A stretch of 64,000 nucleotides of DNA from an uncultured Muribaculaceae bacterium (GTDB lineage Bacteria; Bacillota_I; Bacilli_A; RF39; UBA660): positions 1,877-65,876 of the forward strand of contig CAZVUP010000005.1 in assembly GCA_964630365.1 (NCBI GenBank), given 5' to 3'. A program made the position numbers and the translations under genes. Below, piece after piece: positions 3,509 to 40,227 of this stretch (position 1 is the first letter of the stretch; the number at the start of each line of letters is the position of its first letter). The notes below the pieces were generated by a model. The model was not told the origin of the DNA. It saw only the letters and a program-made list of their open reading frames with translations, and searched no databases.

Positions 3509-4483
3509 TTATTCTTCACTTAAATGTTCATACTCTACAGGTTCTCCAACGCATTCTTTTATTTGATCATTAAACATTTTATCAAACTGAGGCATAGATT
3601 TAGTAATAACATCTTGATAAATGTTTTTACTAGTTACTATTGCCTGTCTTATATCCATAATATTTACTTCTTTTCTATTATCAAATAAGGCATTTGAAAA
3701 TGCTTGTTGTATTATTGTAAGGGATACATCTGGGTATCGAGAACCAATTTCATAAATTCTTTTGTACTCACTAGTTATGTCAGTTATAAATTCCATAATT
3801 CGTCTTTTTATGAAAGATGTATATAACATTTTAGCACCTGTTCTATATTCTATTTTAGGGAGTGTTCCTAATAGTATTTCAATATTTTCTTCTCTAGTTG
3901 GCTCGAATATTTCAACTTTTTGAAATCTACGAACAAATGCTTTGTCTCTAAGTATATAACGTTCATATTCTTCAGTGGTTGTTGCTCCGATTACTTTTAT
4001 ATCACCTCTGTCTAAAGCTGGTTTAAACATATTAGCAAAGTCAAGAGCTTCTCCCTTGGTTCCCATTAAAGTATGAATTTCATCTATAAATAAAATAAGC
4101 TTAGATTTATCTTTTAATTCATCAATTAATGTTTGGACTTTTGATTCGCCAGTTATTGGATCTGTACCTAGAAGTGCCGCTGTATTTAATTTTATAACTT
4201 GATAATCTTTTAAAATATCAGGTACTAGTCCCTTTTGAATACGATAAGCTAATCCTTCTACAGTCGCGGTTTTACCAACACCAGGTTTTCCTATTAAAAC
4301 TGCAGATTTATCTGGTGTTAAAAGAATTAGTATTAATTCTTTTATTTGCTTATCTCTTCCTATGGCTGGATTAGTTATATATTCGTTTTTTTGAAAATTT
4401 TCCCCATAGTTTTTAAGCATACTAATTCTTTTAGATTTTATATCAAAATTATTATTTACTTTATTATTAAATTCCTCATTCAT
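3509..4483 (-). CDS. AAA+ ATPase homologous to ClpA/ClpB/ClpC nucleotide-binding domain 1 only
   Basis: GRDKQIKELI..., Walker A LIGKPGVGKTATVEGLAYRI, Walker B LILFIDEIHTL, and GATTTEEYERYILRDKAFVRRFQKVEI are collinear with ClpB NBD1. The ORF ends after NBD1 (324 aa), with no NBD2 or N-domain. Confidence 0.8.
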   Translation of the reverse strand: MNEEFNNKVNNNFDIKSKRISMLKNYGENFQKNEYITNPAIGRDKQIKELILILLTPDKSAVLIGKPGVGKTATVEGLAYRIQKGLVPDILKDYQVIKLNTAALLGTDPITGESKVQTLIDELKDKSKLILFIDEIHTLMGTKGEALDFANMFKPALDRGDIKVIGATTTEEYERYILRDKAFVRRFQKVEIFEPTREENIEILLGTLPKIEYRTGAKMLYTSFIKRRIMEFITDITSEYKRIYEIGSRYPDVSLTIIQQAFSNALFDNRKEVNIMDIRQAIVTSKNIYQDVITKSMPQFDKMFNDQIKECVGEPVEYEHLSEE

Positions 4484-4619
4484 TTTATCACGTCCTAATC
4501 TATCAATAATTATACCATATTTTTTTATTTACTCATACTATATTTGGTATATTCACTTGACTATCTGTATAGAAAAAACTCTTTTAAATATTATTTTATA
4601 ATTCTAGTATATTTTTTTA

Positions 4620-5480
4620 TTACATTGGATTAACATGGATTACAGTTAAGTATATTTCTTCTATTTCTTTTTCTATTTCCCGCTCTAATTTATTTGCTAT
4701 TTCGTGGGAAGCAAAAGTAGTTAAATTACCATCAACAAATATTGTGAAAGATATTTGATATTTGTAACCTACTGGTGTGGCATTAAAATGATTAACTTTT
4801 TTAATTTCTTTATGTTTTTCGATTAACTTATAAACTTTATTTTTTGTTTTCTCATCCATACATTTGTCCATTAAAACATCATAGCTTTCGATAAAAATTT
4901 TAATAGCAGCATAAGCTATCCAAATAGAAATTATGATTCCAACTATAATATCAATTATATAATATCCATATAATCCAAGTATAGCAGACACTAGTGTAAG
5001 TGAAGTTAATAAACAATCATTTCTGTGATCCTTACTATTTGCTAGTAATAGAATACTATTATTATTCTTAGCTAACTTTGATGTATATAAATATAAAGAT
5101 AATTTAGTTATTATTGTAATTAATGAGACTACTACTAAATAAATGGAAAAGTTTATTTTATCATGATGAATATATGTTAAAATGCTGTTTTTTATAACAC
5201 TATAAGCTGTGAAAAGCATTACTATACTTATTAATAATGAATATATATATTCTGCTTTGCCATGGCCTAAATTGTGATCATCATCCGCTTCTTTAGAACT
5301 AATCTTATTGCCAATCATGGTCATTAGTGATGATAAGACATCTCCAAAGCTATTAAAAGCATCAGCAAGCATAGCTTGACTATTACTAATAATCGCAATT
5401 ATTCCTTTTATGACTAATAAAAACAAATTAAATATTATTCCCAAAAGACTTGCTTTATTAGTTGCTTTATATCTATTCAT
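4620..5480 (-). CDS. Cation diffusion facilitator (CDF) family metal efflux transporter
   Basis: Motifs SQAMLADAFNSFGDV and DDDHNLGHGKAEY, six TM helices, and a C-terminal cytoplasmic domain; typical CDF layout. Confidence 0.85.
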   Translation of the reverse strand: MNRYKATNKASLLGIIFNLFLLVIKGIIAIISNSQAMLADAFNSFGDVLSSLMTMIGNKISSKEADDDHNLGHGKAEYIYSLLISIVMLFTAYSVIKNSILTYIHHDKINFSIYLVVVSLITIITKLSLYLYTSKLAKNNNSILLLANSKDHRNDCLLTSLTLVSAILGLYGYYIIDIIVGIIISIWIAYAAIKIFIESYDVLMDKCMDEKTKNKVYKLIEKHKEIKKVNHFNATPVGYKYQISFTIFVDGNLTTFASHEIANKLEREIEKEIEEIYLTVIHVNPM

Positions 5481-26518: not shown

Positions 26519-28367
26519 CTTCCTTATTGGTTGAATTAGATATTAAAATGTCTTTTAAATTTATATTACTATTTAACTTAAAACTAGCTTTAGAGTCATT
26601 GAATTTATTTTCTTTATTTCTATTTGTATTAGTATTCGTAATGTTTCTTTTAATTCTAGGAATACTTCGATAATCCAATGTATTCCCTTTAAATGCTGGT
26701 AGTAATATACCATTAGAATCTATTCTAGCAATGCATTCACGTGGTTGAAGTTCAGTTAATAATTTTATTTTTCTATCCTTAGAATCATCCAATGGTATTT
26801 TCATGTTAAAATTATCTACTAATATGTTAGCATCTAATTTTGATACTCTAAAGACGAAGTAGTTGATGACATTAGCAAATACAGAATCTTTTAATTTATC
26901 AGATATTTGATTAAAATATTGACTTGCTAATACTAAAGATAAATTATATTTGCGGGCTTCTGATAAAAATCTTGCTAAAATTGGATTTTCTACAACAGCA
27001 ACTTCATCAATAATAAATATAATATGTTGATTAATTGTTTTTTTCCCTATTATAGTTAATAATTGTTGCATTATTAATCCAGATATAGTTTTAGTAACTT
27101 TATCGCCTAGATTTGTTCTGTCTAGGGAGAATAAAGTTAAGAAATTTTCATGTATAGTATCAGTTAAATTTTTCTCATTTTGTTCTGAATTAAATACCGG
27201 TATCATTTCCATTTCATCTATAAAAGCTATGATTGGAGAGATAGCTTCACCATAAGACTTAGTTTTTAAATCATTGAAGTCTGAAAGAAAGAAATCTTTT
27301 ACACTAATTGGCAAGTCATATTTTAACTTTTTTAGTAGACTATTTCTATATTCTAAATCAAGGATTAATCTTCTTAAATTTCTGAAATTAAATGATTCAT
27401 TAATTAATAATAAGTATATAGCATGTCTTAAAACTCTTTCTAATTTTGAATTATATTGATCAGCAATTAATGATTTTAATAAATCTAATAAGAGTTCTGT
27501 TGATGCAACAACGTCTTCACTACTATTAATAAATAAATTAATACTGTCTAGACTACTTTTAAAATCAATAACCTTCCCTATACCACCTATGTCTTCTTCT
27601 AGTGCAGCATGTGGGTCAATAACTACTACTCTATATTTTGATTTGAGACTTTCATTTTTACTAATATTGTTAATTAGTAAACTGATGAATTTAGATTTAC
27701 CACATCCAGAGGAGCCTATTATAATTGAATGCTTATCAAAACTAAAATTATTCTGATTTAAATAAAACTTTCCTTGTAAATATGGAAATGTATCAACAGA
27801 TAATAAAGCATTATTAGAGTCAGTATTTAATAAGTGCAATATTTTATTTATCTCTAAGTATTTAGGTGGACTCTTATAAAAATATCTTTTATTCCCTTCA
27901 AAGTCTACCGATAATATACTTTTGGGAATAGTAAATAAACAATTATATTTTTTTATTTTATTGTTTTTAAGAAGATAAAAACTGACTTTTGATAAAATCT
28001 TATTTTCATATATTTTAAGAAATATAATTTCAAGGTATTTAAAAGCACCTTTATTTTTCACTTCACTATAGTTTATTATATCTATGATACTACTACCAAC
28101 TTTGGGTAAAGAAATTAATGTGCAAACTTGTTTAGGTTTTTTAATTCTTTTTACAGGTTTTAATAAGAAAGAATTTAAATTATTTATTGTCGATGGTAAA
28201 CTACAATTTGTTTCAACAAAATATCTTAGTTGATTTTTGTCATTTATGATAGTTATTTGCCAGTTTCTTAAAATGCCATTATAGTTTGATATAGTCTTAA
28301 TTAACTCTAACCATTCTTCTTTAGAGATATATTTCTTTGTCAAATATATTTCTGACGTTAACTCCAT
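26511..28367 (-). CDS. HerA/FtsK-superfamily P-loop ATPase (DUF87-like)
   Basis: Walker A IIIGSSGCGKSKF, VVVIDPHAALEE (compare HerA iDPhGEY), Walker B IIFIIDEVAVV, and LVLASQ, with an approximately 210-aa N-terminal beta-rich domain. Confidence 0.7.
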   Translation of the reverse strand: MELTSEIYLTKKYISKEEWLELIKTISNYNGILRNWQITIINDKNQLRYFVETNCSLPSTINNLNSFLLKPVKRIKKPKQVCTLISLPKVGSSIIDIINYSEVKNKGAFKYLEIIFLKIYENKILSKVSFYLLKNNKIKKYNCLFTIPKSILSVDFEGNKRYFYKSPPKYLEINKILHLLNTDSNNALLSVDTFPYLQGKFYLNQNNFSFDKHSIIIGSSGCGKSKFISLLINNISKNESLKSKYRVVVIDPHAALEEDIGGIGKVIDFKSSLDSINLFINSSEDVVASTELLLDLLKSLIADQYNSKLERVLRHAIYLLLINESFNFRNLRRLILDLEYRNSLLKKLKYDLPISVKDFFLSDFNDLKTKSYGEAISPIIAFIDEMEMIPVFNSEQNEKNLTDTIHENFLTLFSLDRTNLGDKVTKTISGLIMQQLLTIIGKKTINQHIIFIIDEVAVVENPILARFLSEARKYNLSLVLASQYFNQISDKLKDSVFANVINYFVFRVSKLDANILVDNFNMKIPLDDSKDRKIKLLTELQPRECIARIDSNGILLPAFKGNTLDYRSIPRIKRNITNTNTNRNKENKFNDSKASFKLNSNINLKDILISNSTNKEGV

Positions 28368-28402
28368 AATCCGTCACCTCGTAATAAAATATATCAAAAA
28401 TT

Positions 28403-28437
28403 GAAAATAAAAAACTGACTTTTTAATAATCAGTTTT
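28403..28437 (-). terminator. Rho-independent terminator after the AraC-family gene
   Basis: AAACTGA ... TCAGTTT hairpin followed on the minus strand by TTTTTTATTTT. It separates the AraC gene from the ATPase operon. Confidence 0.6.
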
Positions 28438-28443
28438 GTCAGT

Positions 28444-29238
28444 TTAAAAAATTGCAACTAAGAAATCTGTTATACCATCATGATAGTGTTCTAATTCAGG
28501 TATTTCTTTTAAATTATATTTGACTGATGGTAGAAATTCACCATAAAATTTATGGGATACTTCTTGGATATCTTTTGCATCTTGAGAATTAATTCTAAAT
28601 CTTAACCATTTACTTTTAGGTATTTTAATGTGCTCAAATTCCATAATTTCTTTATCATATAAACAGTAATATTTTTGACTTTCTTCGCGCTCAACATCAT
28701 AAGTAATCATGCCATATTGAATTCTACCATATTTATTTAGATATTTATCTTCGGTTATTTTAAAAAAGTTTGGAGCATCTTCACTAATTTTATCATTGCT
28801 TGTGGTAATACCTACTCCATATAAATTAATTTCATCAAGTGTAACTATTTCATAATCTAATTCCGTAGCAATACTTATGTCTTCATTAAAAACAATTCTA
28901 GGAAAATTTTTTAATTTAGTTTCAGTAGTGACTAGACTTGGTTTGATGCCATGAAACCGCTCAAATGCTCGTGAAAATGATGTAGCATTATCATATTGAT
29001 ATTTAACAGCAACATCTATCACTTTTAATTTACCTTCGTATAGGTCAAATCCTGCATTAGATAATCTTCTTTTTCTAATATATTCTGAGAGTGAAATACC
29101 CGCTATCATAGTAAATAATCTTTGCATAGTATAAACATTTACTCCTAACATTTTTGCTAGAATCTCATAACTAATTTCTTCTTCCAGATTATTATCAATA
29201 TACTCAGTTATTTCATTTAAACTTTTATAGATATTCAA
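28444..29238 (-). CDS. AraC-family transcriptional regulator with GyrI-like effector-binding domain
   Basis: N-terminal double HTH (LAKMLGVNVYTMQRLF...YDNATSFSRAFERFHGIKPS) and a C-terminal GyrI/SOUL-like domain. Confidence 0.8.
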   Translation of the reverse strand: MNIYKSLNEITEYIDNNLEEEISYEILAKMLGVNVYTMQRLFTMIAGISLSEYIRKRRLSNAGFDLYEGKLKVIDVAVKYQYDNATSFSRAFERFHGIKPSLVTTETKLKNFPRIVFNEDISIATELDYEIVTLDEINLYGVGITTSNDKISEDAPNFFKITEDKYLNKYGRIQYGMITYDVEREESQKYYCLYDKEIMEFEHIKIPKSKWLRFRINSQDAKDIQEVSHKFYGEFLPSVKYNLKEIPELEHYHDGITDFLVAIF

Positions 29239-29425
29239 AGTAAATCACCTATATAATATTGTATCATATTTTTTATTATTTGATTGAAATAACATTTTTT
29301 GTTTGATTATTTTTTGAAGTATATACTTTAAAGATTTATAGTAAATTATTCTTTGTATACTAGTTGCATAATATAAATTAAAGTATCTCCTTTATTAAAA
29401 ATATGTAAAATCATTGTTTGTTCGA

Positions 29426-29454
29426 TTGACTGTAGGAATTTAATATGCTATTTT
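29426..29454 (+). promoter_or_regulatory. Promoter of the small hydrophobic-peptide (toxin-like) transcript
   Basis: TTGACT (29426-29431), a 17-nt spacer, and an extended -10 TGcTATTTT (29446-29454). Confidence 0.5.
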
Positions 29455-29485
29455 GTGCTTAGGAACATTTAGTTGTTGGATGTCT

Positions 29486-29514
29486 ACCTTCTTATCTTCT
29501 AGAAGAAAGGAGGT
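29486..29514 (+). promoter_or_regulatory. Shine-Dalgarno-sequestering hairpin in the toxin-like mRNA leader
   Basis: ACCTTCTT (29486-29493) pairs with AAGGAGGT (29507-29514, one G-U) around the palindrome TCTTCTAGAAGA, which occludes the SD. Confidence 0.5.
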
Positions 29515-29522
29515 TTGATAAG

Positions 29523-29621
29523 ATGAAAGCTAAGACTTTTATTTTAAAAGTTTTAAAATTCATATGTATCATTTTATTCCTTTTAATCATTTTGATTATT
29601 GTAATAAAAAAAGGCATCTAA
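29523..29621 (+). CDS. Type I toxin-like small hydrophobic peptide (32 aa)
   Basis: Hand-translated: MKAKTFILKVLKFICIILFLLIILIIVIKKGI, a single TM helix with a basic C-terminus. AAGGAGG SD lies 9 nt upstream of the ATG. Confidence 0.5.
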   Translation: MKAKTFILKVLKFICIILFLLIILIIVIKKGI

Positions 29622-29727
29622 TCTTGATAGATTAAATGTCAACTCATTGATTGGGTAGACATTCAACTCGCAAAAACTGAATGTTCCCATTTTTATTTTA
29701 TGCAAGATTCCTTGCTACATACATAAT

Positions 29728-29806
29728 AACATAAAAAGGAACTTTTTTCAAGTTCCTTTGTCATTTCATATAGAGCGATTAAGCAACATCTTACGAACCA
29801 TAACGC
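29728..29806 (-). ncRNA. Predicted small RNA convergent with the toxin-like gene (candidate antitoxin RNA)
   Basis: Minus-strand promoter TTGAAA (29841-29836), 17-nt spacer, TATAAT (29818-29813). Hairpin AAAGGAACTT/AAGTTCCTTT (29735-29759) is followed by a U-run on the minus strand. No ORF. Confidence 0.35.
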
Positions 29807-29918
29807 AAAAATATTATATATGAAATTCTATTATATTTCAATGGGAGTATGGAGAATTTTGTTGTTTTATAGTATAATATATTCAAAATTAAACTTGATT
29901 TTATATAGGAGGTATAAA

Positions 29919-30335
29919 ATGAACGCAAATTTATGGACGCAATTACTTATAGCAATAGTTCCAGCACTTATTACTGGTGCTGGAAGTTTAATAATTGCAA
30001 TTAAGAAATGTAAAAATGAAATTAATACTCTTGAAACTAATAATAAACACGAAATAGAAAAATTAATGAAACAACATGAAATAGATCTTGAAGCATTAAA
30101 AGAAAAGCATAGACTTGATATGGAATCTAAAGAAAAAGAACATCAATTAAAAATTGAAGAAATAAAAGTCCAAAATGAACAAGAAATATTAAAAAGAGAA
30201 AAAGAATTATCTAATTCTGCAATGTATTCAATGATGGGCGATGCAACTAAGGATTTGTTTACTGGAATATTTAATTCACCAGAATTTAAAGAAGAGATGA
30301 ATAAAAAAATTAAAGAAGGATTTAATAAGAAATAG
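29919..30335 (+). CDS. Membrane-anchored coiled-coil protein, unknown function
   Basis: Start at ATG 29919 (AGGAGG RBS). One N-terminal TM helix (LLIAIVPALITGAGSLIIAI), then a K/E-rich helical region. Confidence 0.5.
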   Translation: MNANLWTQLLIAIVPALITGAGSLIIAIKKCKNEINTLETNNKHEIEKLMKQHEIDLEALKEKHRLDMESKEKEHQLKIEEIKVQNEQEILKREKELSNSAMYSMMGDATKDLFTGIFNSPEFKEEMNKKIKEGFNKK

Positions 30336-30384
30336 TGTTATATAATTATAAAAATAAGTTGGAATGGTTGGAGGTAATTATATA

Positions 30385-31131
30385 ATGAATAAAAAACAGA
30401 TTTTAGAGCAAGTTGATAAACTAATAATTATGTATAAAAATGGTGAGTTAGGTGGCGAAGTAATGCCTGAAGATGCTAATCCACATTTTGAAAAATCTAG
30501 TTTAGAAAATTATTTATATTTTACATTACCTATGGCTCTTAATTATCAAAGAAATTCTTATACTCTATGGGAAAGTGCTCTAAAAACTTATAATGATGAA
30601 GAAACAAGATTTGTATTTAATCCAAAATTATGCTTAGAGAAATCATTTGAAGAAGTACAATATGCTCTTACCAAATATAAAGTTGCTTTGCAAAAGCAAA
30701 AACAGACTGAAATATGGCTTGCATTGTGTAATACATTTGTAGAATTATTTGATGGTGATATAAGGAAATTATTTGATGAATTAGACAATGATGTTGAAAA
30801 AATTAGAGATTATATCCAGAAACAAAATAAAAAGAAATTTCCTTATTTATCTGGTACAAAAATATGTAATTATTGGATGTATGTGATATATCAATATACG
30901 GATAGAAGATATAAAAATATTGAAAAATTAACTGTTGCCCCTGATACTCATGTATGCAAGGCAACACTAAAATTAGGATTAATTAATGATGAAGAATTTA
31001 ATTCTAGTAATGTTCAATTAATCGTAATAGAAAGATGGCAAGAATTATTTAAAGGTACAAAATATAAACCAATTGATATTCATACTCCGCTTTGGTTATG
31101 GAGTAGAAATGGATTTAAGGAGGTAAAATAA
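30385..31131 (+). CDS. HhH-GPD superfamily DNA glycosylase-like protein
   Basis: FPYLSGTKICNYWMYV (HhH, G-x-K) followed by LTVAPDTHVCKATLKLGLI, which parallels endonuclease III LPGVGRKTANVVL...VDTHIFRV..R.G. No Fe-S cysteine cluster. Confidence 0.5.
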   Translation: MNKKQILEQVDKLIIMYKNGELGGEVMPEDANPHFEKSSLENYLYFTLPMALNYQRNSYTLWESALKTYNDEETRFVFNPKLCLEKSFEEVQYALTKYKVALQKQKQTEIWLALCNTFVELFDGDIRKLFDELDNDVEKIRDYIQKQNKKKFPYLSGTKICNYWMYVIYQYTDRRYKNIEKLTVAPDTHVCKATLKLGLINDEEFNSSNVQLIVIERWQELFKGTKYKPIDIHTPLWLWSRNGFKEVK

Positions 31132-31686
31132 TGAAGATGGGAAATTTAGAATTTAAACCTATAATAGAAAATAAAAATCTTGTTCCAAAGTGCATATATG
31201 ACTTAGTTAATGATTGGGATAATTTAGAAGAAAAAAAATATATTTATGGTTGCAGAAATTAATCCTAATTTTGCTGATGGAAATAAACTTTGTGAAGAAT
31301 ATAATATTGATAAAAAAATTGGGTTTAATTGTTTAATAGTTGAGTGTAAAAGAAATGAAGTTATTAAGTATTGTGCTTTAATAGTTCCTGTTGGATATAA
31401 GTATAATATGGGAAGTGTAGTTAGAAAATTTACAAACTCTAGAGTTGTATCTGTAGCTCCTCTTGATTATGTTTTAGAAAAAACACAAATGGAATATGGA
31501 AGTATCACGCCAATTGGTCTTCCAAAGGACTGGATGATATTGGTTGATCCATTAATAAAAGAACAAGAGCAAATTATAATTGGTGGAGGTTTAGTAAATT
31601 CTAAAATCTCATTACTAACAGAGTTATTTTTAAAGATTCCTAATGTTGAAATTGGTGATGGTGTTGCCAAAAAAATTATTGAGTAA
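31131..31686 (+). pseudogene. YbaK/ProX-type aminoacyl-tRNA editing domain protein, interrupted by a frameshift at an A8 tract
   Basis: ATG 31131 (overlapping TAATG with the upstream gene) opens a 43-codon frame. The +1 frame continues from the A8 run (31231-31238) as ...EINPNF...EYGSITPIGLP...IIIGGGLVNSKISL (tRNA_edit-like). Confidence 0.5.
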
Positions 31687-32071
31687 TATCTTTTATAAAG
31701 GGTATGGGAATTCCCATAGTAGAATTTATGCGGGAGTATAAATTCAGTGCTGGCTAGACAAGGGCTTTACTCCCACTTTGTGATAAATATAAAAAGAGGA
31801 TTAGATTATTTTGATAATTTTTTCCTCTTTTTAGTTAGTAAAATAAAAACTTACGAACTTTAATTAGTCCGTAAGTTGTCTTCAAATGGAGCGAGTGTCG
31901 TAGATATCTACAACTCTTTCTCTAGTGATATGATAAATATCACTCACTACTAATAATATAGCATATTTTTAGAGAATAATAAACAAAATTATAAACAAAA
32001 ATGTAAAAATTTGATATAATCATAATAGCGAATATCTTATGATATTCTCTTTTTTTATAAGGAGGGTAAAA

Positions 32072-33043
32072 ATGTTCTCGAAAAAATTTTTAGACAAAGG
32101 ATTTGTATTTTTAGGTGTAGGAATTGTCTCATTTGGAAATATATTGACAGAAATTATACTTAATTATTTTAATATTGATATTCCACAATATAATATTTAT
32201 ATTTGCTTAATTGTTGGAATCTTATTAATTATTGTTGGATTAATAATGTATTATAAGGAGTCAAAAGAAAATCATACTTTATCAATTATAGGTTTAGATA
32301 ATATGAACTATATCACCAAAATTAAAAATCCGCTTACTATTAATATAATTGATGATTGTAAAAATATTAAAACAAGTAATTCTAAATCAATAATATCTAG
32401 TTACGTTAAAAATATTAAAGAAAAAATTAGTAATTATATTTCATATAAAATTTCTTATTTTGGCGTTGCACCTTTACCTTTTGTTGCTATAGCAGGAAAA
32501 TATTATAGAAAAGTAAACATTATAAAACATTATGAATATCACCAAAAGGATGATAAAATTTTACCATTGAAGATAAAAAAATTATTTTTTAATGAAAAAC
32601 TAAAATGTGAAGAAAAGAACAATAATAGTAATATTGCAGTTATTACTATAGAAACAACAACTAGAATTAATGATGAAGATTTAAAACAATTTAGAAATGC
32701 TAATGTTTTTAAATTTTACCTAGAAGATACCAGAACTAATGCTATTACTTATGAAAAACAGCTAGAAGAATATTCAGAAACAATTGCAGATACTATTTAT
32801 AAAATTAGTAAAACAAATATTGAAAAAATTTATATATTAGGTGCATGCCAAAGTTCTTTAGTTTTTGAAGTGTTTAGAAGATTAAATGATAATAGAATTA
32901 AAGAAATAATTGTTTGCAATTACAAGGCTAAATCAAAAAATAAATACAACTGGGGGATTAGCATTTACAATGAAAATGATATTGAAAAATATGTAGAATT
33001 AGGAAGTGATATATGTGGACAAAATCAAAAATCTAATGAATAA
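32072..33043 (+). CDS. 2TM-SAVED-like CBASS effector candidate
   Basis: Start at ATG 32072 (GGAGGG RBS). Two N-terminal TM helices, then an approximately 250-aa domain with two Rossmann-like units (ISYFGVAPLPFVAIAGKYY; IYILGACQSSLVFEVFRRL), as in SAVED/CARF. Confidence 0.5.
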   Translation: MFSKKFLDKGFVFLGVGIVSFGNILTEIILNYFNIDIPQYNIYICLIVGILLIIVGLIMYYKESKENHTLSIIGLDNMNYITKIKNPLTINIIDDCKNIKTSNSKSIISSYVKNIKEKISNYISYKISYFGVAPLPFVAIAGKYYRKVNIIKHYEYHQKDDKILPLKIKKLFFNEKLKCEEKNNNSNIAVITIETTTRINDEDLKQFRNANVFKFYLEDTRTNAITYEKQLEEYSETIADTIYKISKTNIEKIYILGACQSSLVFEVFRRLNDNRIKEIIVCNYKAKSKNKYNWGISIYNENDIEKYVELGSDICGQNQKSNE

Positions 33044-34364
33044 TTTTTACTATAATGAAGTTATACTATCGAATGATAAAGTTACTGAGTTACGTGAAAA
33101 GAAAAGTATAAATATAACTAGATTAAAAGATGGAATAAATAAATATAATGAAGATAATAATACCGATTATATATTATACGAAAGTTTAGAACAAGGAAGT
33201 ATTGCAATGTCCACTGCAATTGAACCAGAATACGATGACTTTGATATAGATGTTGCGATAATATTTGAAAAAGAGAAAATACCATCATCGACTGATGAAA
33301 TGAAAGACTTAGTAATAGATTTTTTAAAACCATATAATTATTATTTTAAAGAAAATCCAAAAAAGAAAAACAACTGTATAAGAATTGAATATCAAGATAA
33401 TTATCATATAGATTTTGCTGTTTATAGAGTTTCAAATGATTATTATGAACATTGTGGTTTGAATTGGACAGAAAGGAACCCTAGAAGTATAAATAATTGG
33501 TTTCATGAACAAAACAATTTGTATGATGACAAACTAAGAAAAATCACACGATTGATAAAGTATTTTTCTAAGACTAGAAAAGATTGGGATATATGTGGTG
33601 GTTTTATAATAACTATCCTTGTAAATGAGGCATTAGCAAATATAACATTAGATGTAGATATAGATAAATTACTACTAGATGTAATAAAATCTATTTCCAA
33701 TAGGATTAATTTTAATACTTCTGTTAAAAATCCTACTAATAATCAAGAATTGATAAATGATGATAAAAACAAAAAAAGATTAAAAAACTTAAAAGAAAAA
33801 TTGGATGAACATATTAGTGATATTGAAAATGCTTATTTAAATAATGATGTTGAAGATGTAAAAAGAAAATGGAATAAGTTTTTTAAAACGAATTATTTTA
33901 CATCAGATTCTCAACAAAGAAGTAGATGTGAAGACAATGAAATGTTTATCGAAAATATATATAGTATTGATAAATTAATGCCAATAAAGTTTGAAATAAA
34001 ATGCCAAAGATATATTTCAAAAGATAACTTTAAAAACTCTACATATGTTAATTGCTTTGACAATCAAAAATTTAGTATAACTCAAAATAGAGATGAAAAA
34101 TTATGCTTTTCGATAGATACAACTATTCCTAAACCATATATTTTGTTATGGAAAATAAAAAATAATGGTAATTATGCTATAGAAAATAATAGTTTACGTG
34201 GAGAGATATACTATGGTAATAATTTAAACTCTTTTGCAGATGATCCACATAGTTTTAAACGATTTGAAAGTATATCGTTTAAAGGAAATCATTATGTAGA
34301 ATGTTATTTAATCAAAAATAATAAGTGTATTGCTAAATCACGATTTAATGTTAATATTGAATAA
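33006..34364 (+). CDS. CD-NTase (SMODS) family nucleotidyltransferase with C-terminal beta-rich extension
   Basis: LEQGSIAMSTAIEPEYDDFDIDVAIIF (G-S ... D-x-D) and NYHIDFAVY (third Asp), then RKITRLIKYFSK. The C-terminal part, LLWKIKNNGNYAIENNSLRGEIYY, is possibly an AGS-C sensor domain. Start is uncertain (GTG 33006/33015 or ATG 33036). Confidence 0.65.
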   Translation: MIYVDKIKNLMNNFYYNEVILSNDKVTELREKKSINITRLKDGINKYNEDNNTDYILYESLEQGSIAMSTAIEPEYDDFDIDVAIIFEKEKIPSSTDEMKDLVIDFLKPYNYYFKENPKKKNNCIRIEYQDNYHIDFAVYRVSNDYYEHCGLNWTERNPRSINNWFHEQNNLYDDKLRKITRLIKYFSKTRKDWDICGGFIITILVNEALANITLDVDIDKLLLDVIKSISNRINFNTSVKNPTNNQELINDDKNKKRLKNLKEKLDEHISDIENAYLNNDVEDVKRKWNKFFKTNYFTSDSQQRSRCEDNEMFIENIYSIDKLMPIKFEIKCQRYISKDNFKNSTYVNCFDNQKFSITQNRDEKLCFSIDTTIPKPYILLWKIKNNGNYAIENNSLRGEIYYGNNLNSFADDPHSFKRFESISFKGNHYVECYLIKNNKCIAKSRFNVNIE

Positions 34365-34451
34365 TTAAAGGAAATTTAGTGGTTTTTTAAGACATTTAAC
34401 ACTTTTTATGATAGAATAATACTTGAATTAATTTTCAGGAGGGATTTAGAT

Positions 34452-35993
34452 ATGAATTATTTAGCGAATATCAAAAGAATATTAGATAGTGATGCAGGAT
34501 TGATAATTGAAGATATGTCTCAACCAGATATTAAAAAAGTTGTAGATAATAGATTTTCTCTTATTAAGCAAAGTGTTGAACGAGTTGAAAATAAAGATGA
34601 TAATTTTTACACTGAATTAGTAAAATTAATAAGTAATTACATTAATGAATTATGTGATAAGAAAATTGAAGATTTTCCTATTATTGTTTTTGATGAAAAT
34701 AGTGAAGAAATTGCACAAGAATATGATGAACTTAATTCAAGTGATATGTTGAATCTAACACATGCAAATAAGGAACTATCAAAAAAATTATTTGAATATG
34801 TATGTAGTATTTTAGAAGTTAATAAAGATGTTAAGTTAGATATTGAAACATTAAAGAAACTATTAAATCGTAATCCAAAATTATTTACTTTATCGGTAGA
34901 AGAAAGTTATTTATATAGAACTTTTGATTATAAAAAATTAGTTAAGATTATCAATGAAAATGGAACATTAGAAAAATCAAATATTAGCATAGATGACATT
35001 TACCAAATATTATTTGATACTTGTCAACTTAATAATCAAGATGTTTTTTGCGGTTTAGTAACACCAGAACAATTTAGTAAAAATCACAAAAAAATAGATG
35101 AAATGTTAAGCTGTTGTAATGCAAAAGCATTTGTCGAAATAACTAATATAATAACACGTAATTTTGATAAAAAATTTGATAGATTAAGTTTTGCAAAGAA
35201 TAGAAGCAAAGATAAATTTTGTGAAAGATTAATAATTGAATTGCTACACTCTTATGTTAAAGATGAAGATTGTAATTTAATTCATCAAATTCTTACAGAT
35301 TCTGAAATTCAAATTGATTATGATAGATATTATGCAGATTATATAGGACAAACTAATTTAAAATCACTTATTGCATTAAGTAAAAATCCTATAATTATAA
35401 AAGACCTTTTAAGCAAAGAACAAAATGTGCAAGATTACTATTGGCATGGTGAATCTGGCATACAATTATTTAGATTATATGGAATTATTGGTGACTACGA
35501 GAAAGCACTAACTAATTTCAATGAAAAATATAATTATGGATGTGATTACACAGAAGACTTTGATGATGATTTTAATAGAGTTGGACATACTTATGGAGGC
35601 TGGGATTACGGAGATTCCGTTGCTGTATTTGTTAATGATGTTTGTACTTCATTTAATGAACAAAATACTGATTATTCAATGCGCAAAGCAATTATTAATA
35701 AGATTTTGAATAATGATAAAGTAAAGTATATTAATTTAGAAGAAACATTACCTGTTGTGCAAGAAGTATTATCAGATGAAGATTTTAAAGCATTATTAGA
35801 TACTTTAGTTTTAAAAAGAAATTCTGGTAATTTAGGGTTTATTGTTTCAGAAGAAAATAATGAAGATAGTTTTTTCAATCGCTATGTCATTAGATTGGCT
35901 AGTGAAGAAGAAGTTCAAGATTATTTATCATCATTGAATAAAAAAGAAAAAGCTAAAGTTTTAAGTTTAAATCCTACTAAAAAAGATGATTAG
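34452..35993 (+). CDS. Hypothetical protein (513 aa), no recognised domain
   Basis: AGGAGGG RBS and a long ORF directly downstream of the CD-NTase-like gene with no terminator between them. Its stop overlaps the convergent mob gene stop by 4 nt. Confidence 0.5.
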   Translation: MNYLANIKRILDSDAGLIIEDMSQPDIKKVVDNRFSLIKQSVERVENKDDNFYTELVKLISNYINELCDKKIEDFPIIVFDENSEEIAQEYDELNSSDMLNLTHANKELSKKLFEYVCSILEVNKDVKLDIETLKKLLNRNPKLFTLSVEESYLYRTFDYKKLVKIINENGTLEKSNISIDDIYQILFDTCQLNNQDVFCGLVTPEQFSKNHKKIDEMLSCCNAKAFVEITNIITRNFDKKFDRLSFAKNRSKDKFCERLIIELLHSYVKDEDCNLIHQILTDSEIQIDYDRYYADYIGQTNLKSLIALSKNPIIIKDLLSKEQNVQDYYWHGESGIQLFRLYGIIGDYEKALTNFNEKYNYGCDYTEDFDDDFNRVGHTYGGWDYGDSVAVFVNDVCTSFNEQNTDYSMRKAIINKILNNDKVKYINLEETLPVVQEVLSDEDFKALLDTLVLKRNSGNLGFIVSEENNEDSFFNRYVIRLASEEEVQDYLSSLNKKEKAKVLSLNPTKKDD

Positions 35994-37378
35994 AAACCTA
36001 TTTCATAATCATCTTTTTCTTTGTCTTTATTTTTATCATTTTCTTTATTCCAAATATAATCATCTTGAATTGATTGAATAGTTTTATCACTAAATATATT
36101 ATGAGTATATAAATCTTTTGAAAAATTCCAGTAATTTTCTCGTTCTTTTTCTTTACTAAACATTTTATCTTTTATAAACTTAACTAATCTATCAAATAAA
36201 TTTTCAAAGAAATTAATCGTGCTTTGTAGTTTAGAATTTTTTTCTTTAAGATCATCAATCTCATCTACTTGTTTATCTATCTTTTTTTCAAGAGATTTAA
36301 CTTTAATGTTTAAGGCATCATTGTTTTCAGTTAGTATTTTAACTTTTTCTCTGTTTTCTTTTAATTCAGTTTCAACATCATTTAAGGTAATAGATAACTT
36401 TTGCATTTTCTTATATTCTTTATTAGTTGAATCTACTTGCTGAATAAATTTATCAATTTTATCTTTATCACCTTTATTTAAAACATATTTATCTTTGTTA
36501 GTGAAAGTAGTTTTTAAATTACTAACTATATTTTTAACCTCATTAGAATTATTATCTAGTTCTAGTGATTTTTTATTGGCTATTTCTAATCGTTCTTTAT
36601 TTTTAGATAATTCTTCTTGCATTTCAATATAGTTTCCCATATCTTTAACATTTATATCTTTATTTCTACCTTTTTGTTTAGTTTTTAAAACATTATTTAA
36701 GCCATATTCTTTATTAAAACTAGCAATACATAAAGTTCTCATTTTATCTTGTAGTTCTATTAACTTTGTTTTTGTGAATACATCAGATTTACCAACTTGT
36801 TTAGACATACCATTTTTGCTTTTATATTTAATTGGAACACCAACAATATGCATATGTGGACTAGTTTCATCATAATGAATAATTGCACTTGCTATTTTAA
36901 AGTTAGGAATTAAAGTTTCTAAATCTTTAACTTGTTCTTTATATACATTAGACATTTTGTGCTTGAATTTCTCATCTTTAGTATCCCAATACTTTTTATC
37001 TCCAAGTTCAATAATAATTTCACAAGCCAAATCATTTTTAGAATTATCACTAATCTTTTTAAAGTAGTCATCTATCTTTCTATCATCTCTAGTTTGTTTA
37101 GAATTGTATTCTAATCTTGCTTCTTCAAATTCATCTTTATATAATTTTTGAACATCATTATATAGAGAAGTTGTTCCTCTAACAATTTCAATTAAGTGTT
37201 GTTTGTCATCATACTTACGATAATTATGTTTATCAACACGAGATAATTGTCTAGCATTTTGTATTGCATTATTTGATAGAGAAGTATTTCCACTAGCATT
37301 AGATTTTGCTCTTGCTCTTGATACATTTTTTCTATTCTTATCACTACCCAAATGCAGTGAGTATGCAAGTTCTGGCAT
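35990..37378 (-). CDS. MobV-family (Mob_Pre) relaxase
   Basis: Motif III HxDE..PHxH is present as IIHYDETSPHMHIVGVPI, with an N-terminal HL..D..R region and a long C-terminal coiled coil typical of MobV/Pre proteins. Confidence 0.8.
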   Translation of the reverse strand: MPELAYSLHLGSDKNRKNVSRARAKSNASGNTSLSNNAIQNARQLSRVDKHNYRKYDDKQHLIEIVRGTTSLYNDVQKLYKDEFEEARLEYNSKQTRDDRKIDDYFKKISDNSKNDLACEIIIELGDKKYWDTKDEKFKHKMSNVYKEQVKDLETLIPNFKIASAIIHYDETSPHMHIVGVPIKYKSKNGMSKQVGKSDVFTKTKLIELQDKMRTLCIASFNKEYGLNNVLKTKQKGRNKDINVKDMGNYIEMQEELSKNKERLEIANKKSLELDNNSNEVKNIVSNLKTTFTNKDKYVLNKGDKDKIDKFIQQVDSTNKEYKKMQKLSITLNDVETELKENREKVKILTENNDALNIKVKSLEKKIDKQVDEIDDLKEKNSKLQSTINFFENLFDRLVKFIKDKMFSKEKERENYWNFSKDLYTHNIFSDKTIQSIQDDYIWNKENDKNKDKEKDDYEIGF

Positions 37379-37608
37379 ATATAAATCACATCCTTTCTTT
37401 GAGCTTATTTTGTTTATGACAAAATATTTAACCCCCTAGGTATTTTGACACAAGTATCAAAATAACCTCGTGGGCTAGGGATTCCCTAGAACCCTTTTGA
37501 AACTTATTTCGTAATGTTTTAAAACTTCGTAATAAAACAAAACTACATAAGTTTATAAAATGCTATCGCCACTTTCATTTACTTCGTAAACAAAACGTGC
37601 CACGCATT

Positions 37609-39540
<1,932 letters not shown>

Positions 39541-39729
39541 TCAAAAAAAGAGAGACAAAAGTAATAGAAATATATACTACTACCTTTATCTCTCTAACTT
39601 TTACTATCAAAATAAATTTTTTTCTTATTCCCATAATGCATAACCCCCATTAATACATTTAAGAATATCTCTTTCAGTTGCTTTATATAATAATATTTTT
39701 GTCTTAAAAAGTCAATAGTTAGCGAAATA

Positions 39730-40023
39730 TCAGGCATTTAGTAGATTTTTAATATAATCTTCAAGTTCCACAAGTTGAATCTTTTTATTTAGACTACCAA
39801 CATAAATATCAGTAGAATAATTAAATGCTAGAAAAGTAGTATCTTTAACAATAATCTTATGTGGTTCTATGTAAGATAGATTAGTCTTATCAATTTTTCT
39901 AATACTACCATTTATAATAGTAGGTTTGATATGACAAAACTCACATATAAATTCTAGTCGTTGTTTAAGATTGCCTTCTATTTCTAGTTCTTGTGTAATA
40001 ATCTTAATCACTACAAACACCAT
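39730..40023 (-). CDS. Hypothetical protein (97 aa)
   Basis: Small ORF upstream of the recombinase gene, inside the element. No recognised motif. Confidence 0.35.
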   Translation of the reverse strand: MVFVVIKIITQELEIEGNLKQRLEFICEFCHIKPTIINGSIRKIDKTNLSYIEPHKIIVKDTTFLAFNYSTDIYVGSLNKKIQLVELEDYIKNLLNA

Positions 40024-40032
40024 CCTTTCTTT

Positions 40033-40110
40033 TAAGGATGACTTTTTAATAGAACTTCCAAGCTGAAACGCGAGAGTTCGACAAACAAAAAATCATCTCA
40101 ATATGAGATG
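40033..40110 (+). pseudogene. Decayed tRNA-Gly-like relic, inverted relative to the intact tRNA-Gly
   Basis: TTTAAT-AGAAC-TTCCAAGCTGA-..ACG.G.G-GTTCGA-...ATCATC matches blocks of the adjacent tRNA (TTTAATGGTAGAAC[CTCAGCC]TTCCAAGCTGACTACGTGGGTTCGATTCCCATCATC), with a 7-nt deletion and 3' decay. Confidence 0.4.
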
Positions 40111-40112
40111 AT
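40083..40112 (-). terminator. Rho-independent terminator downstream of tRNA-Gly
   Basis: ATCATCTCA-ATA-TGAGATGAT hairpin (40092-40112), followed on the minus strand by TTTTTTGTTTG. Confidence 0.65.
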
Positions 40113-40153
40113 ATCTATCGTAAATGTTCGAAAAGTTCGAACAGAAACGTCAC

Positions 40154-40227
40154 TGGAGCGGATGATGGGAATCGAACCCACGTAGTCAGCTTGGAAGGCT
40201 GAGGTTCTACCATTAAACTACATCCGC
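40154..40227 (-). tRNA. tRNA-Gly (anticodon UCC), CCA encoded
   Basis: The reverse complement folds as a cloverleaf: acceptor GCGGATG/CATCCGC, D arm GTTT-AATGGTA-GAAC, anticodon arm TCAGC-CTTCCAA-GCTGA, T arm GTGGG-TTCGATT-CCCAT, and 3' TCCA. Confidence 0.92.

Follow-up and report, generated by a model that had tools for sequence, protein, structure and literature searches.

A type I toxin-antitoxin-like module of a previously unannotated family in uncultured gut Bacilli

The known type I toxin-antitoxin systems belong to a limited number of families, mostly from cultivated Proteobacteria and Firmicutes. In toxins of the bsrG/SR4 group, a transmembrane helix at the N-terminus is combined with a charged C-terminus. 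In fst/RNA II, the two RNAs interact via 5' direct repeats located outside their overlap. The primary transcript of hok/sok from plasmid R1 is kept inert by a long-distance 5'-3' interaction together with occlusion of the Shine-Dalgarno sequence (SD). In both hok/sok and aapA1/IsoA1, which belong to Gram-negative hosts, the antisense RNA targets the 5' region or the open reading frame (ORF), and activation requires 3' processing. Here we analyse a locus between positions 29426 and 29751 of a 64,000-nucleotide stretch of DNA (contig CAZVUP010000005.1, positions 1,877 to 65,876; hereafter "the window") assigned to the RF39 lineage of Bacilli, which we read as a module of the same general kind.

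In the layout of Gram-positive type I families (PMC8594479), the antisense RNA runs convergently to the toxin mRNA and overlaps its 3' end, and bsrG/SR4 has been studied as such a 3'-overlapping system (PMC3834814). A different principle operates in aapA1/IsoA1 of Helicobacter pylori, where the full-length mRNA is closed by a 5'-3' interaction, its SD is occluded and the molecule is translationally inert (PMC6733600). The antisense RNA predicted here (29716->29603, minus strand) shows the 3' overlap that defines the bsrG/SR4 and txpA/RatA class. We conclude that the locus is probably a type I toxin-antitoxin-like module of a new family, with the 3'-overlapping Gram-positive build. This reading is well supported by comparison of sequences, the toxicity of the peptide being a prediction. 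A first-pass annotation of the same DNA had also proposed a type I system; its toxin side and its class assignment stand, whereas the identity of the antitoxin and the membership of the module in a mobile element had to be revised.

Predicted toxin gene and predicted antisense antitoxin

The toxin promoter on the plus strand (29426-29454) consists of the -35 box TTGACT (29426-29431), a 17-nt spacer and the sequence TG-n-TATTTT (29446-29454). The mRNA predicted from it is about 240 nt long (~29461 to ~29700) and encodes a peptide of 32 amino acids (29523-29621, plus strand; MKAKTFILKVLKFICIILFLLIILIIVIKKGI), whose ATG lies 9 nt downstream of a GGAGG SD (29509-29513). Both the promoter, described earlier as TTGACT-17-TGcTATTTT, and the 32-codon hydrophobic ORF with its basic tail are present as the first-pass annotation had them, and the ORF is conserved with a coding signature in about 150 relatives. 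The peptide is composed of a basic N-terminus, one hydrophobic helix with about 18 hydrophobic residues and a KK(GI) tail. Judged by this composition, it probably spans the membrane. A small (<60 aa), hydrophobic, membrane-directed product with its own promoter and SD is the pattern of type I toxins.

Relatives were collected in two scans. The first scan searched species-representative genomes with a 26-nt 3' pattern (29676-29701, one position free). The 26-nt core was exactly conserved in at least 119 species genomes, and most of the copies retrieved contain an ORF of 30-32 aa. An independent scan of metagenome contigs, in which members were selected by their ORF, added about 78 further members, among them further subfamilies (...LLVIAIKI, ...LVLVLKI) with different 3' sequences. 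The consensus of the family peptides is MKTKTFIIKVLKLIAIILFLLIIMIVVIKK. In about 150 relatives, entropies of the three codon positions are 0.55, 0.35 and 0.75, pN/pS is about 0.49, and replacements are conservative (K/R, I/V/L, F/Y). The toxin ORF is under coding (purifying) selection. Its promoter is conserved as well: the TTG of the -35 box and the T/A positions of the -10 box are near-invariant in an alignment of 77 loci (A1).

Conservation is also found 3' of the toxin terminator. When 122 loci were aligned on the minus strand (A2), the conserved columns read cTTGnnA, a 17-nt spacer and TGnTAnnAT. The corresponding antisense promoter of the window (29751-29723, minus strand) has the -35 box TTGAAA (29751-29746), a 17-nt spacer and TG-n-TATTAT (29731-29723). 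This site had also come up in the motif scan of the window's own sequence. Of the members, 83-86% have such an extended -10 promoter versus about 1% of shuffles, and among the ORF-selected members the share is about 90%. The product would be a cis-antisense RNA of about 113 nt (~29716->29603, minus strand, with predicted start and 3' end), consisting of hairpins SL1 and SL2 and the terminator SL3. It matches the final ~98 nt of the mRNA (29603-29700) with perfect complementarity, and this overlap includes codons 27-32, the last six, as well as the post-stop hairpin and the toxin terminator.

The three-hairpin fold of this RNA, with a start near 29716, is found in every subfamily, and its cells are 93.1% paired versus 26-46% with slid partners. 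SL1 (29715-29702, minus strand; GCAAGG-AAUC-UUGC) is the 5'-terminal hairpin and lies outside the terminated toxin mRNA; four of its five pairs change on both sides in relatives (GCAAG/CUUGC, GAGA/UCUC, GAAG/CUUC, GCAG/CUGC). SL2 is the complement of the toxin terminator. SL3 (29639-29603, minus strand) comprises a hairpin (29639-29612) and a U-run (29611-29603), whose U7 stretch is the complement of the toxin lysine codons. Compensatory changes occur at four SL3 pairs. Pairing of SL3 reaches 93.8% when it is read as minus-strand RNA versus 86.5% as plus-strand RNA, with 138 versus 32 G-U pairs, an asymmetry that speaks for selection of the structure in the antisense transcript.

The 5' end of the mRNA and SL2 are near-identical, and both are complementary to one and the same 3' strand, for which they must therefore compete. 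A single 35-nt segment would thus act as terminator, as partner of the mRNA 5' end in the closing helix and as target of the antitoxin, which is an economical design. This triple duty is a plausible explanation of the exact conservation of the segment in more than 100 species.

The antitoxin had previously been sought elsewhere, in a convergent minus-strand small RNA (sRNA) of about 75-80 nt, transcribed from a TTGAAA-17-TATAAT promoter (29841-29813) and ended at a 10-bp hairpin with T-run (29759-29735), which would act in trans or by read-through overlap. Both signals exist. The promoter matches 11 of 12 consensus positions, and the hairpin is a good terminator, the only terminator-like site in the 1.3-kb region scanned (shuffles give 0.2). 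Furthermore, an mRNA reading through to 29765 would overlap this sRNA by about 39 nt and form a duplex of -56.5 kcal/mol. However, the sRNA (29806->29727, ~80 nt) forms no above-chance duplex with the terminated mRNA (-28.1 versus -26.8 +/- 3.5 kcal/mol; 64 of 200 shuffles are as good), in agreement with the caveat attached to the proposal, namely that extended sRNA-mRNA complementarity could not be found. Moreover, the region 29760-29920 is shared by the window and only one of 119 family loci (L030), and the promoter is conserved only there, where the same end of an inserted 10.4-kb element (see below) is present. The promoter is located within the terminal 60 nt of that element, at its left terminus, faces outwards and reads across the element junction into an old tRNA terminator; at two sites not interrupted by the element (L145, L201) it is absent. 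The old terminator is the 29759-29735 hairpin itself, which served an upstream minus-strand gene, originally tRNA-Gly. The conserved antisense -35 box lies in its loop, so that the conserved antisense promoter overlaps the supposed sRNA terminator. The 29841-29813 promoter is not part of the toxin-antitoxin family, and we regard the convergent sRNA as a highly improbable antitoxin. The cis-antisense RNA 29716->29603 is likely the better candidate.

Closure of the predicted toxin mRNA

Folding of 29461-29700 gives a minimum free energy (MFE) of -72.6 kcal/mol versus -40.5 +/- 4.3 kcal/mol for dinucleotide shuffles (z = -7.5; none of 200 shuffles is as good). For the longer RNA 29461-29765, z is -9.1. 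Both foldings, which had been suggested together with the first-pass annotation, are therefore well below the shuffles. According to the MFE pair table, the 5' end of the mRNA (29462-29485, plus strand) pairs with 29657-29667 and 29675-29687, leaving a 7-nt bulge and including two G-U pairs. This long-range 5'-3' helix is kept across the family. The 3' strand is part of the toxin terminator (29654-29700, plus strand), which is complementary to SL2 and can form a local hairpin of -11.6 kcal/mol with a U-run (UUUUUAUUUU) behind it.

The SD is enclosed in a local hairpin (29486-29514, plus strand), in which the anti-SD ACCUUCUU (29486-29493) pairs with AAGGAGGU (29507-29514). The probability of being unpaired is at most 0.02 over 29508-29512 and 0.20 at 29513, likewise without the 3' strand. 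Sequestration of the SD by 29486-29493, as originally proposed, is thus borne out by pair table and pairing probabilities. The proposed 27-nt helix needs qualification. Its location, the two G-U pairs and the 7-nt bulge are confirmed, but the ACC at 29486-29488 is needed by both the 27-nt helix and the 8-nt anti-SD, so that the full helix and the full SD hairpin cannot coexist; the MFE structure combines 24 bp with the SD hairpin.

Both features recur in relatives. When 77 relatives were folded individually, the MFE structure of 75 had 18 or more of the first 28 nt paired to the 3' end, and the SD was paired over 80% or more of its length in 65. With the members of both scans combined, 144 of 149 reach a 5'/3' duplex energy of -25 kcal/mol or better (median -37.9 kcal/mol). 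Since RNAalifold gave a poor consensus on the raw 77-locus alignment due to register shifts, explicit structures were used instead. In an alignment of 67 distinct concatenated strands (A4), helix cells are paired in 91.3% versus 34-48% with slid partners. Compensatory changes were detected at 14 of 27 helix pairs versus 7.6 +/- 1.4 in shuffles, none of 500 shuffles reaching 14, and the number of compensatory cells is 84 versus 20 +/- 5. For example, GUCUACC/GGUAGAC is replaced by GUCG-U-CCUC/GAGGCGAC or GUCAUCC/GGGUGAC, AGU/ACU by GAU/AUC or AUU/AAU, and AACAUU/AAUGUU by AACGUU/AACGUU or AAUAUU/AAUAUU. Lack of covariation in homologous loci had been named beforehand as a result that would speak against the helix; the opposite was observed. 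Covariation thus supports the long-distance 5'-3' closure predicted for the mRNA.

The same strands could be viewed as terminal inverted repeats (TIRs) acting at the DNA level, that is, the locus might be a non-autonomous repeat similar to miniature inverted-repeat transposable elements (MITEs), with an incidental ORF. Many genomes do contain dispersed units of about 230 bp flanked by imperfect inverted repeats of 24-27 bp. On the other hand, conservation extends beyond both "TIRs" into promoter positions, the ORF shows third-position variation and conservative replacements, and the helix tolerates G-U pairs, which argues for pairing of RNA and not of DNA. No target-site duplications were seen. 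A MITE-like origin is extremely improbable, and it was rejected on the strength of the coding signature of the ORF and the covariation of the helix.

For the toxin-antitoxin module, the following scheme can be proposed. A sigma-A-type promoter (29426-29454) would direct synthesis of the ~240-nt mRNA (~29461-29700) for the 32-aa peptide. This mRNA would be inert owing to the 24-27-bp helix that joins its exact 5' end to the terminator and to the local hairpin that buries the SD. From the extended -10 promoter on the minus strand (29751-29723), the ~113-nt RNA complementary to the mRNA end would be produced. By analogy with bsrG/SR4 and txpA/RatA, formation of the duplex, probably seeded by loop-to-loop contact, may lead to decay by RNase III, to an SD that stays closed, or to both. 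In this scheme, we infer the ends and strands of the transcripts as well as the involvement of an RNase.

Distribution of the family and location at tRNA genes

Nearly all hosts retrieved in the first scan are metagenome-assembled genomes labelled Bacilli, Tenericutes or Erysipelotrichaceae, originating from rabbit, ruminant, mouse, chicken and human gut. The family is common in uncultured small-genome Bacilli of gut and rumen. Seven exact family peptides were not found among 15 billion proteins, and phmmer retrieved no match from 1.84 billion representative proteins. Rfam search yielded nothing relevant at E up to 10 (28000-31500) or at gathering thresholds (whole window). BLAST of the locus gave no plasmid match and a single match in a phage collection, which corresponds to the end of the inserted element (29773-29860) and not to the toxin-antitoxin module. 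In IMG/VR, neither the 3' pattern nor the ORF pattern had any matches other than chance ones, and no description of the peptide or the family was found in the literature. The family is previously unannotated and has been missed by gene callers and family databases.

Among the copies selected by their 3' sequence, and hence on the antisense side, the ORF is intact in about 80, disrupted in 19 and reduced to remnants in 8, and 10 consist of the antisense unit only. In some copies with intact ORF the SD is mutated. That the toxin is lost and the antisense unit stays is the pattern expected of a toxin-antitoxin pair. Conversely, the 3' module is kept in 58 of 60 ORF-selected members with enough flanking sequence; one of the two exceptions (L197) has lost start codon and SD.

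"Orphan" antisense units without toxin homology were observed in L002, L007, L024, L030 and other loci. They are cut off at the post-stop hairpin and fused to the terminator of a neighbouring gene. Their RNAs could pair with the conserved 3' ends of toxin mRNAs from other copies.

We considered that the ORF may encode a harmless small membrane protein, for instance a modulator of other membrane proteins, with antisense RNA and mRNA structure only tuning its level. Toxicity is itself a prediction, the ORF is under purifying selection, and many copies reside among housekeeping genes, all of which would fit. It would be harder to reconcile with the occurrence of multiple copies and tandem arrays (three copies in L104), with the frequent inactivation of ORFs while the antisense unit is retained, with mutated SDs and with translation that is locked twice over. 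Presence in more than 100 species with varied neighbours also corresponds to a selfish type I pattern and not to a core gene. A harmless regulated protein is therefore unlikely.

Several points nevertheless weigh against the type I toxin-antitoxin reading. We infer toxicity of the peptide and its rescue by the antisense RNA from sequence. When four family peptides were compared with Pfam and NCBIfam at E up to 10, only noise was obtained and no known toxin family. The second exception among the ORF-selected members (L185) combines an intact ORF with a replaced 3' end devoid of the 3' module. As to the closing helix, the search pattern of the first scan fixed its 3' strand, and the strands of alignment A4 were cut at RNAduplex boundaries, which leans to pairing, although they were aligned by sequence only. 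RNA libraries can be cited on both sides. Rumen metatranscriptome contigs of relatives lie inside the predicted mRNA (X28, 245 nt, 29453-29694; X26, from 29460; X27, 29497-29703; X34, 29474-29625), and 29655-29696 is matched exactly at depth 29-47 in two size-fractionated small-RNA libraries. These contigs are assembled, unstranded and derived from relatives, so that neither the direction of a transcript nor its true ends can be read from them; RNA ends are not fixed by de Bruijn contigs, which break wherever variants occur. In addition, some of them span the predicted antisense start (X30/X31, 29667-29737; X26, 29595-29755), and read-through transcripts or an antisense start further upstream are possible. 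The RNA contigs are evidence that the region occurs in RNA, nothing more.

Size-fractionated small-RNA libraries from bovine gut (runs X30, X31) yield palindromic snap-back contigs (29565-29606, 29667-29737) that turn at 29606 and 29667. These turning points coincide with the end of the predicted antisense/mRNA duplex and with the loop of the terminator hairpin, respectively. They may represent cleavage sites or RNA ends, or assembly artefacts.

Further, we examined the surroundings of the module. In two relatives (L145, L201), a module of the window type (87.8% identical) is followed by 13 nt and an intact tRNA-Gly gene identical to 40154-40227. It follows that in the window a 10.4-kb element lies between module and tRNA-Gly, at approximately 29779-40153. 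The left flank of the window reads ...GTTCCTTTGTCATTTCATA-TAGAGCG and then breaks into ATTAAGCAACATCTTACGAACC..., while the tRNA side reads ...AACGTCAC-TGGAGCGGATGATGGG. The heptamer TAGAGCG (29772-29778) is a degenerate copy of the tRNA-Gly 3' end TGGAGCG (40154-40160) and marks the junction. The same element end, following GGAGCG, was found in L030 and in fecal scaffold L120. The left junction of the element thus appears to be at ~29778/29779. It does not seem to lie at 29414-29425, another position proposed for it. The module had earlier been assigned to the left end of the mobile element; judged from the same uninterrupted sites, it lies outside, to the left of the junction. It would accordingly be no cargo of the serine-recombinase/MobV element but a resident of the old downstream flank of tRNA-Gly.

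The element itself encodes a SAVED-domain protein and a CD-NTase with AGS-C domain (a CBASS-like pair, 32039-34364), a Mob_Pre relaxase (35990-37378) and a large serine recombinase (37609-39531). Its terminal ~110 nt (29770-29885) are conserved in L030 (6328-6452) and in L120 (MT836804.1, 1501-1597), a human-fecal scaffold labelled "Bacteriophage sp.". This terminus contains back-to-back promoters, TTGAAA-17-TATAAT on the minus strand and TGGAGA-17-TATAAT on the plus strand, ahead of a gene at 29919. Relatives have a 9-nt insertion (TTTCTTTCT) at ~29805.

Neighbouring genes of 126 copies are diverse and include housekeeping genes (SMC, PheT, ribosomal protein S4, ScpB). Nevertheless, 51 of 165 assessable copies (31%) have a tRNA gene 3' end no more than 250 nt away, mostly at 2-50 nt (e.g. 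L017, L041, L100, L145), versus about 2 copies expected from random placement by a rough estimate. The adjacent tRNA genes, of 11 specificities, are always on the strand of the antisense RNA, and in these copies the hairpin with the antisense -35 box in its loop is the tRNA terminator. No tRNA-derived direct repeats were detected upstream of tRNA-adjacent copies within the examined flanks. A second conserved hairpin (ACTCGAAAAGTTCGAGT or GTTCGAAAAAGTTCGAAC) is often situated between tRNA and module, and a hairpin of the same type occurs in the window at 40127-40143, beside tRNA-Gly.

In two loci (L023, 4920-6250; L089, minus strand, ~3600-4720 oriented), tandem units of about 500 bp are arranged behind tRNA-His. 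Each unit consists of a linker (CTCAATTTAACGTGTTTACGAAAAATCGGC...) and one module, and units are separated by 6-nt remnants of the tRNA-His end (TGGGGC). One of the tandem units encodes a different 27-aa peptide (MNKKDFLILSLVIIIFLLLFLLFIVLI; MNKKDFLILSL...), with its own 5'-3' helix and the same antisense promoter region.

The association with tRNA 3' ends, the tRNA-His remnants between tandem units and the ten 3' modules without toxin homology would also suit a recombination feature, in which the ~110-bp 3' module is a boundary or attachment element of a mobile cassette and the peptide mere cargo. Yet the toxin gene, or what is left of it, still accompanies about 90% of 3' modules, the positions that are invariant belong to promoters, and the hairpins covary with a minus-strand G-U bias. 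Moreover, the 3' strand covaries with the 5' end of the mRNA, which is a constraint at the RNA level, and in L023 and L089 the tRNA remnants, the candidate crossover sites, are located outside the module. As the principal function of the 3' module, a role in recombination is therefore very unlikely. Both readings are compatible in that a toxin-antitoxin module can be the cargo of a cassette.

A more far-reaching version, which we regard as rather unlikely, is that the module is the sole cargo of a minimal cassette that lacks a recombinase and has been captured repeatedly at tRNA 3' ends. The antitoxin gene would then always be placed co-directionally behind the tRNA, with its -35 box in the tRNA terminator hairpin. 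If so, antitoxin supply could be tied to tRNA transcription or read-through, making the module a growth-rate-sensing addiction module. The near-invariant 3' module could be a shared "immunity" RNA, with orphan units guarding against incoming toxin cassettes, and the whole would constitute an undescribed system of cassette accretion at tRNA genes in small-genome gut Bacilli. Irrespective of this, the position of the type I module behind tRNA genes and the tandem mini-cassettes are a useful marker of integration hot spots and offer a case in which a link between a toxin-antitoxin module and tRNA loci can be tested.

Comparison with known systems

With respect to location, and not to mechanism, the locus resembles the accretion of islands and cis-mobilisable elements at tRNA genes. 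Tandem modules with tRNA-end remnants are found behind tRNA-His, and the 10.4-kb recombinase element entered between module and tRNA-Gly. The accreted units differ in their size of only ~350-500 bp and in containing nothing but a toxin-antitoxin module.

The fst/RNA II system (par of enterococcal plasmid pAD1) and Fst-like systems resemble the module in the size of the peptide (about 30 aa) and its single transmembrane helix, in convergent transcription with a shared terminator region and in a 5' structure limiting translation. In contrast, the Pfam Fst family is not matched by the peptides described here, and there is no interaction via 5' direct repeats; the only extended complementarity is the cis overlap.

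As in hok/sok and aapA1/IsoA1, the mRNA would be closed by a 5'-3' interaction backed by covariation. This similarity concerns the mechanism only and involves no homology, and the antisense RNA of our locus would target the 3' strand of the closing helix instead.

The nearest counterparts are bsrG/SR4, bsrE/SR5, txpA/RatA and yonT/SR6 of Bacillus subtilis. Features in common are a small hydrophobic peptide, a convergent 3'-overlapping antisense RNA (here predicted), an overlap that reaches the end of the ORF and an SD within a short helix; the terminator hairpins could plausibly make loop-loop contacts as well. Differences are nevertheless evident. There is no sequence relation (no relevant Pfam, NCBIfam or Rfam match to E = 10), the peptide has a basic N-terminus and a KK tail, and the mRNA possesses in addition the 24-27-bp helix between 5' end and terminator. 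Hosts are uncultured small-genome gut Bacilli, and the module is often located directly behind tRNA genes, not in prophages. In its mechanism, the module is thus closest to the bsrG/SR4 type, to which a closing helix similar to that of hok and aapA has been added, with no sequence homology to either.

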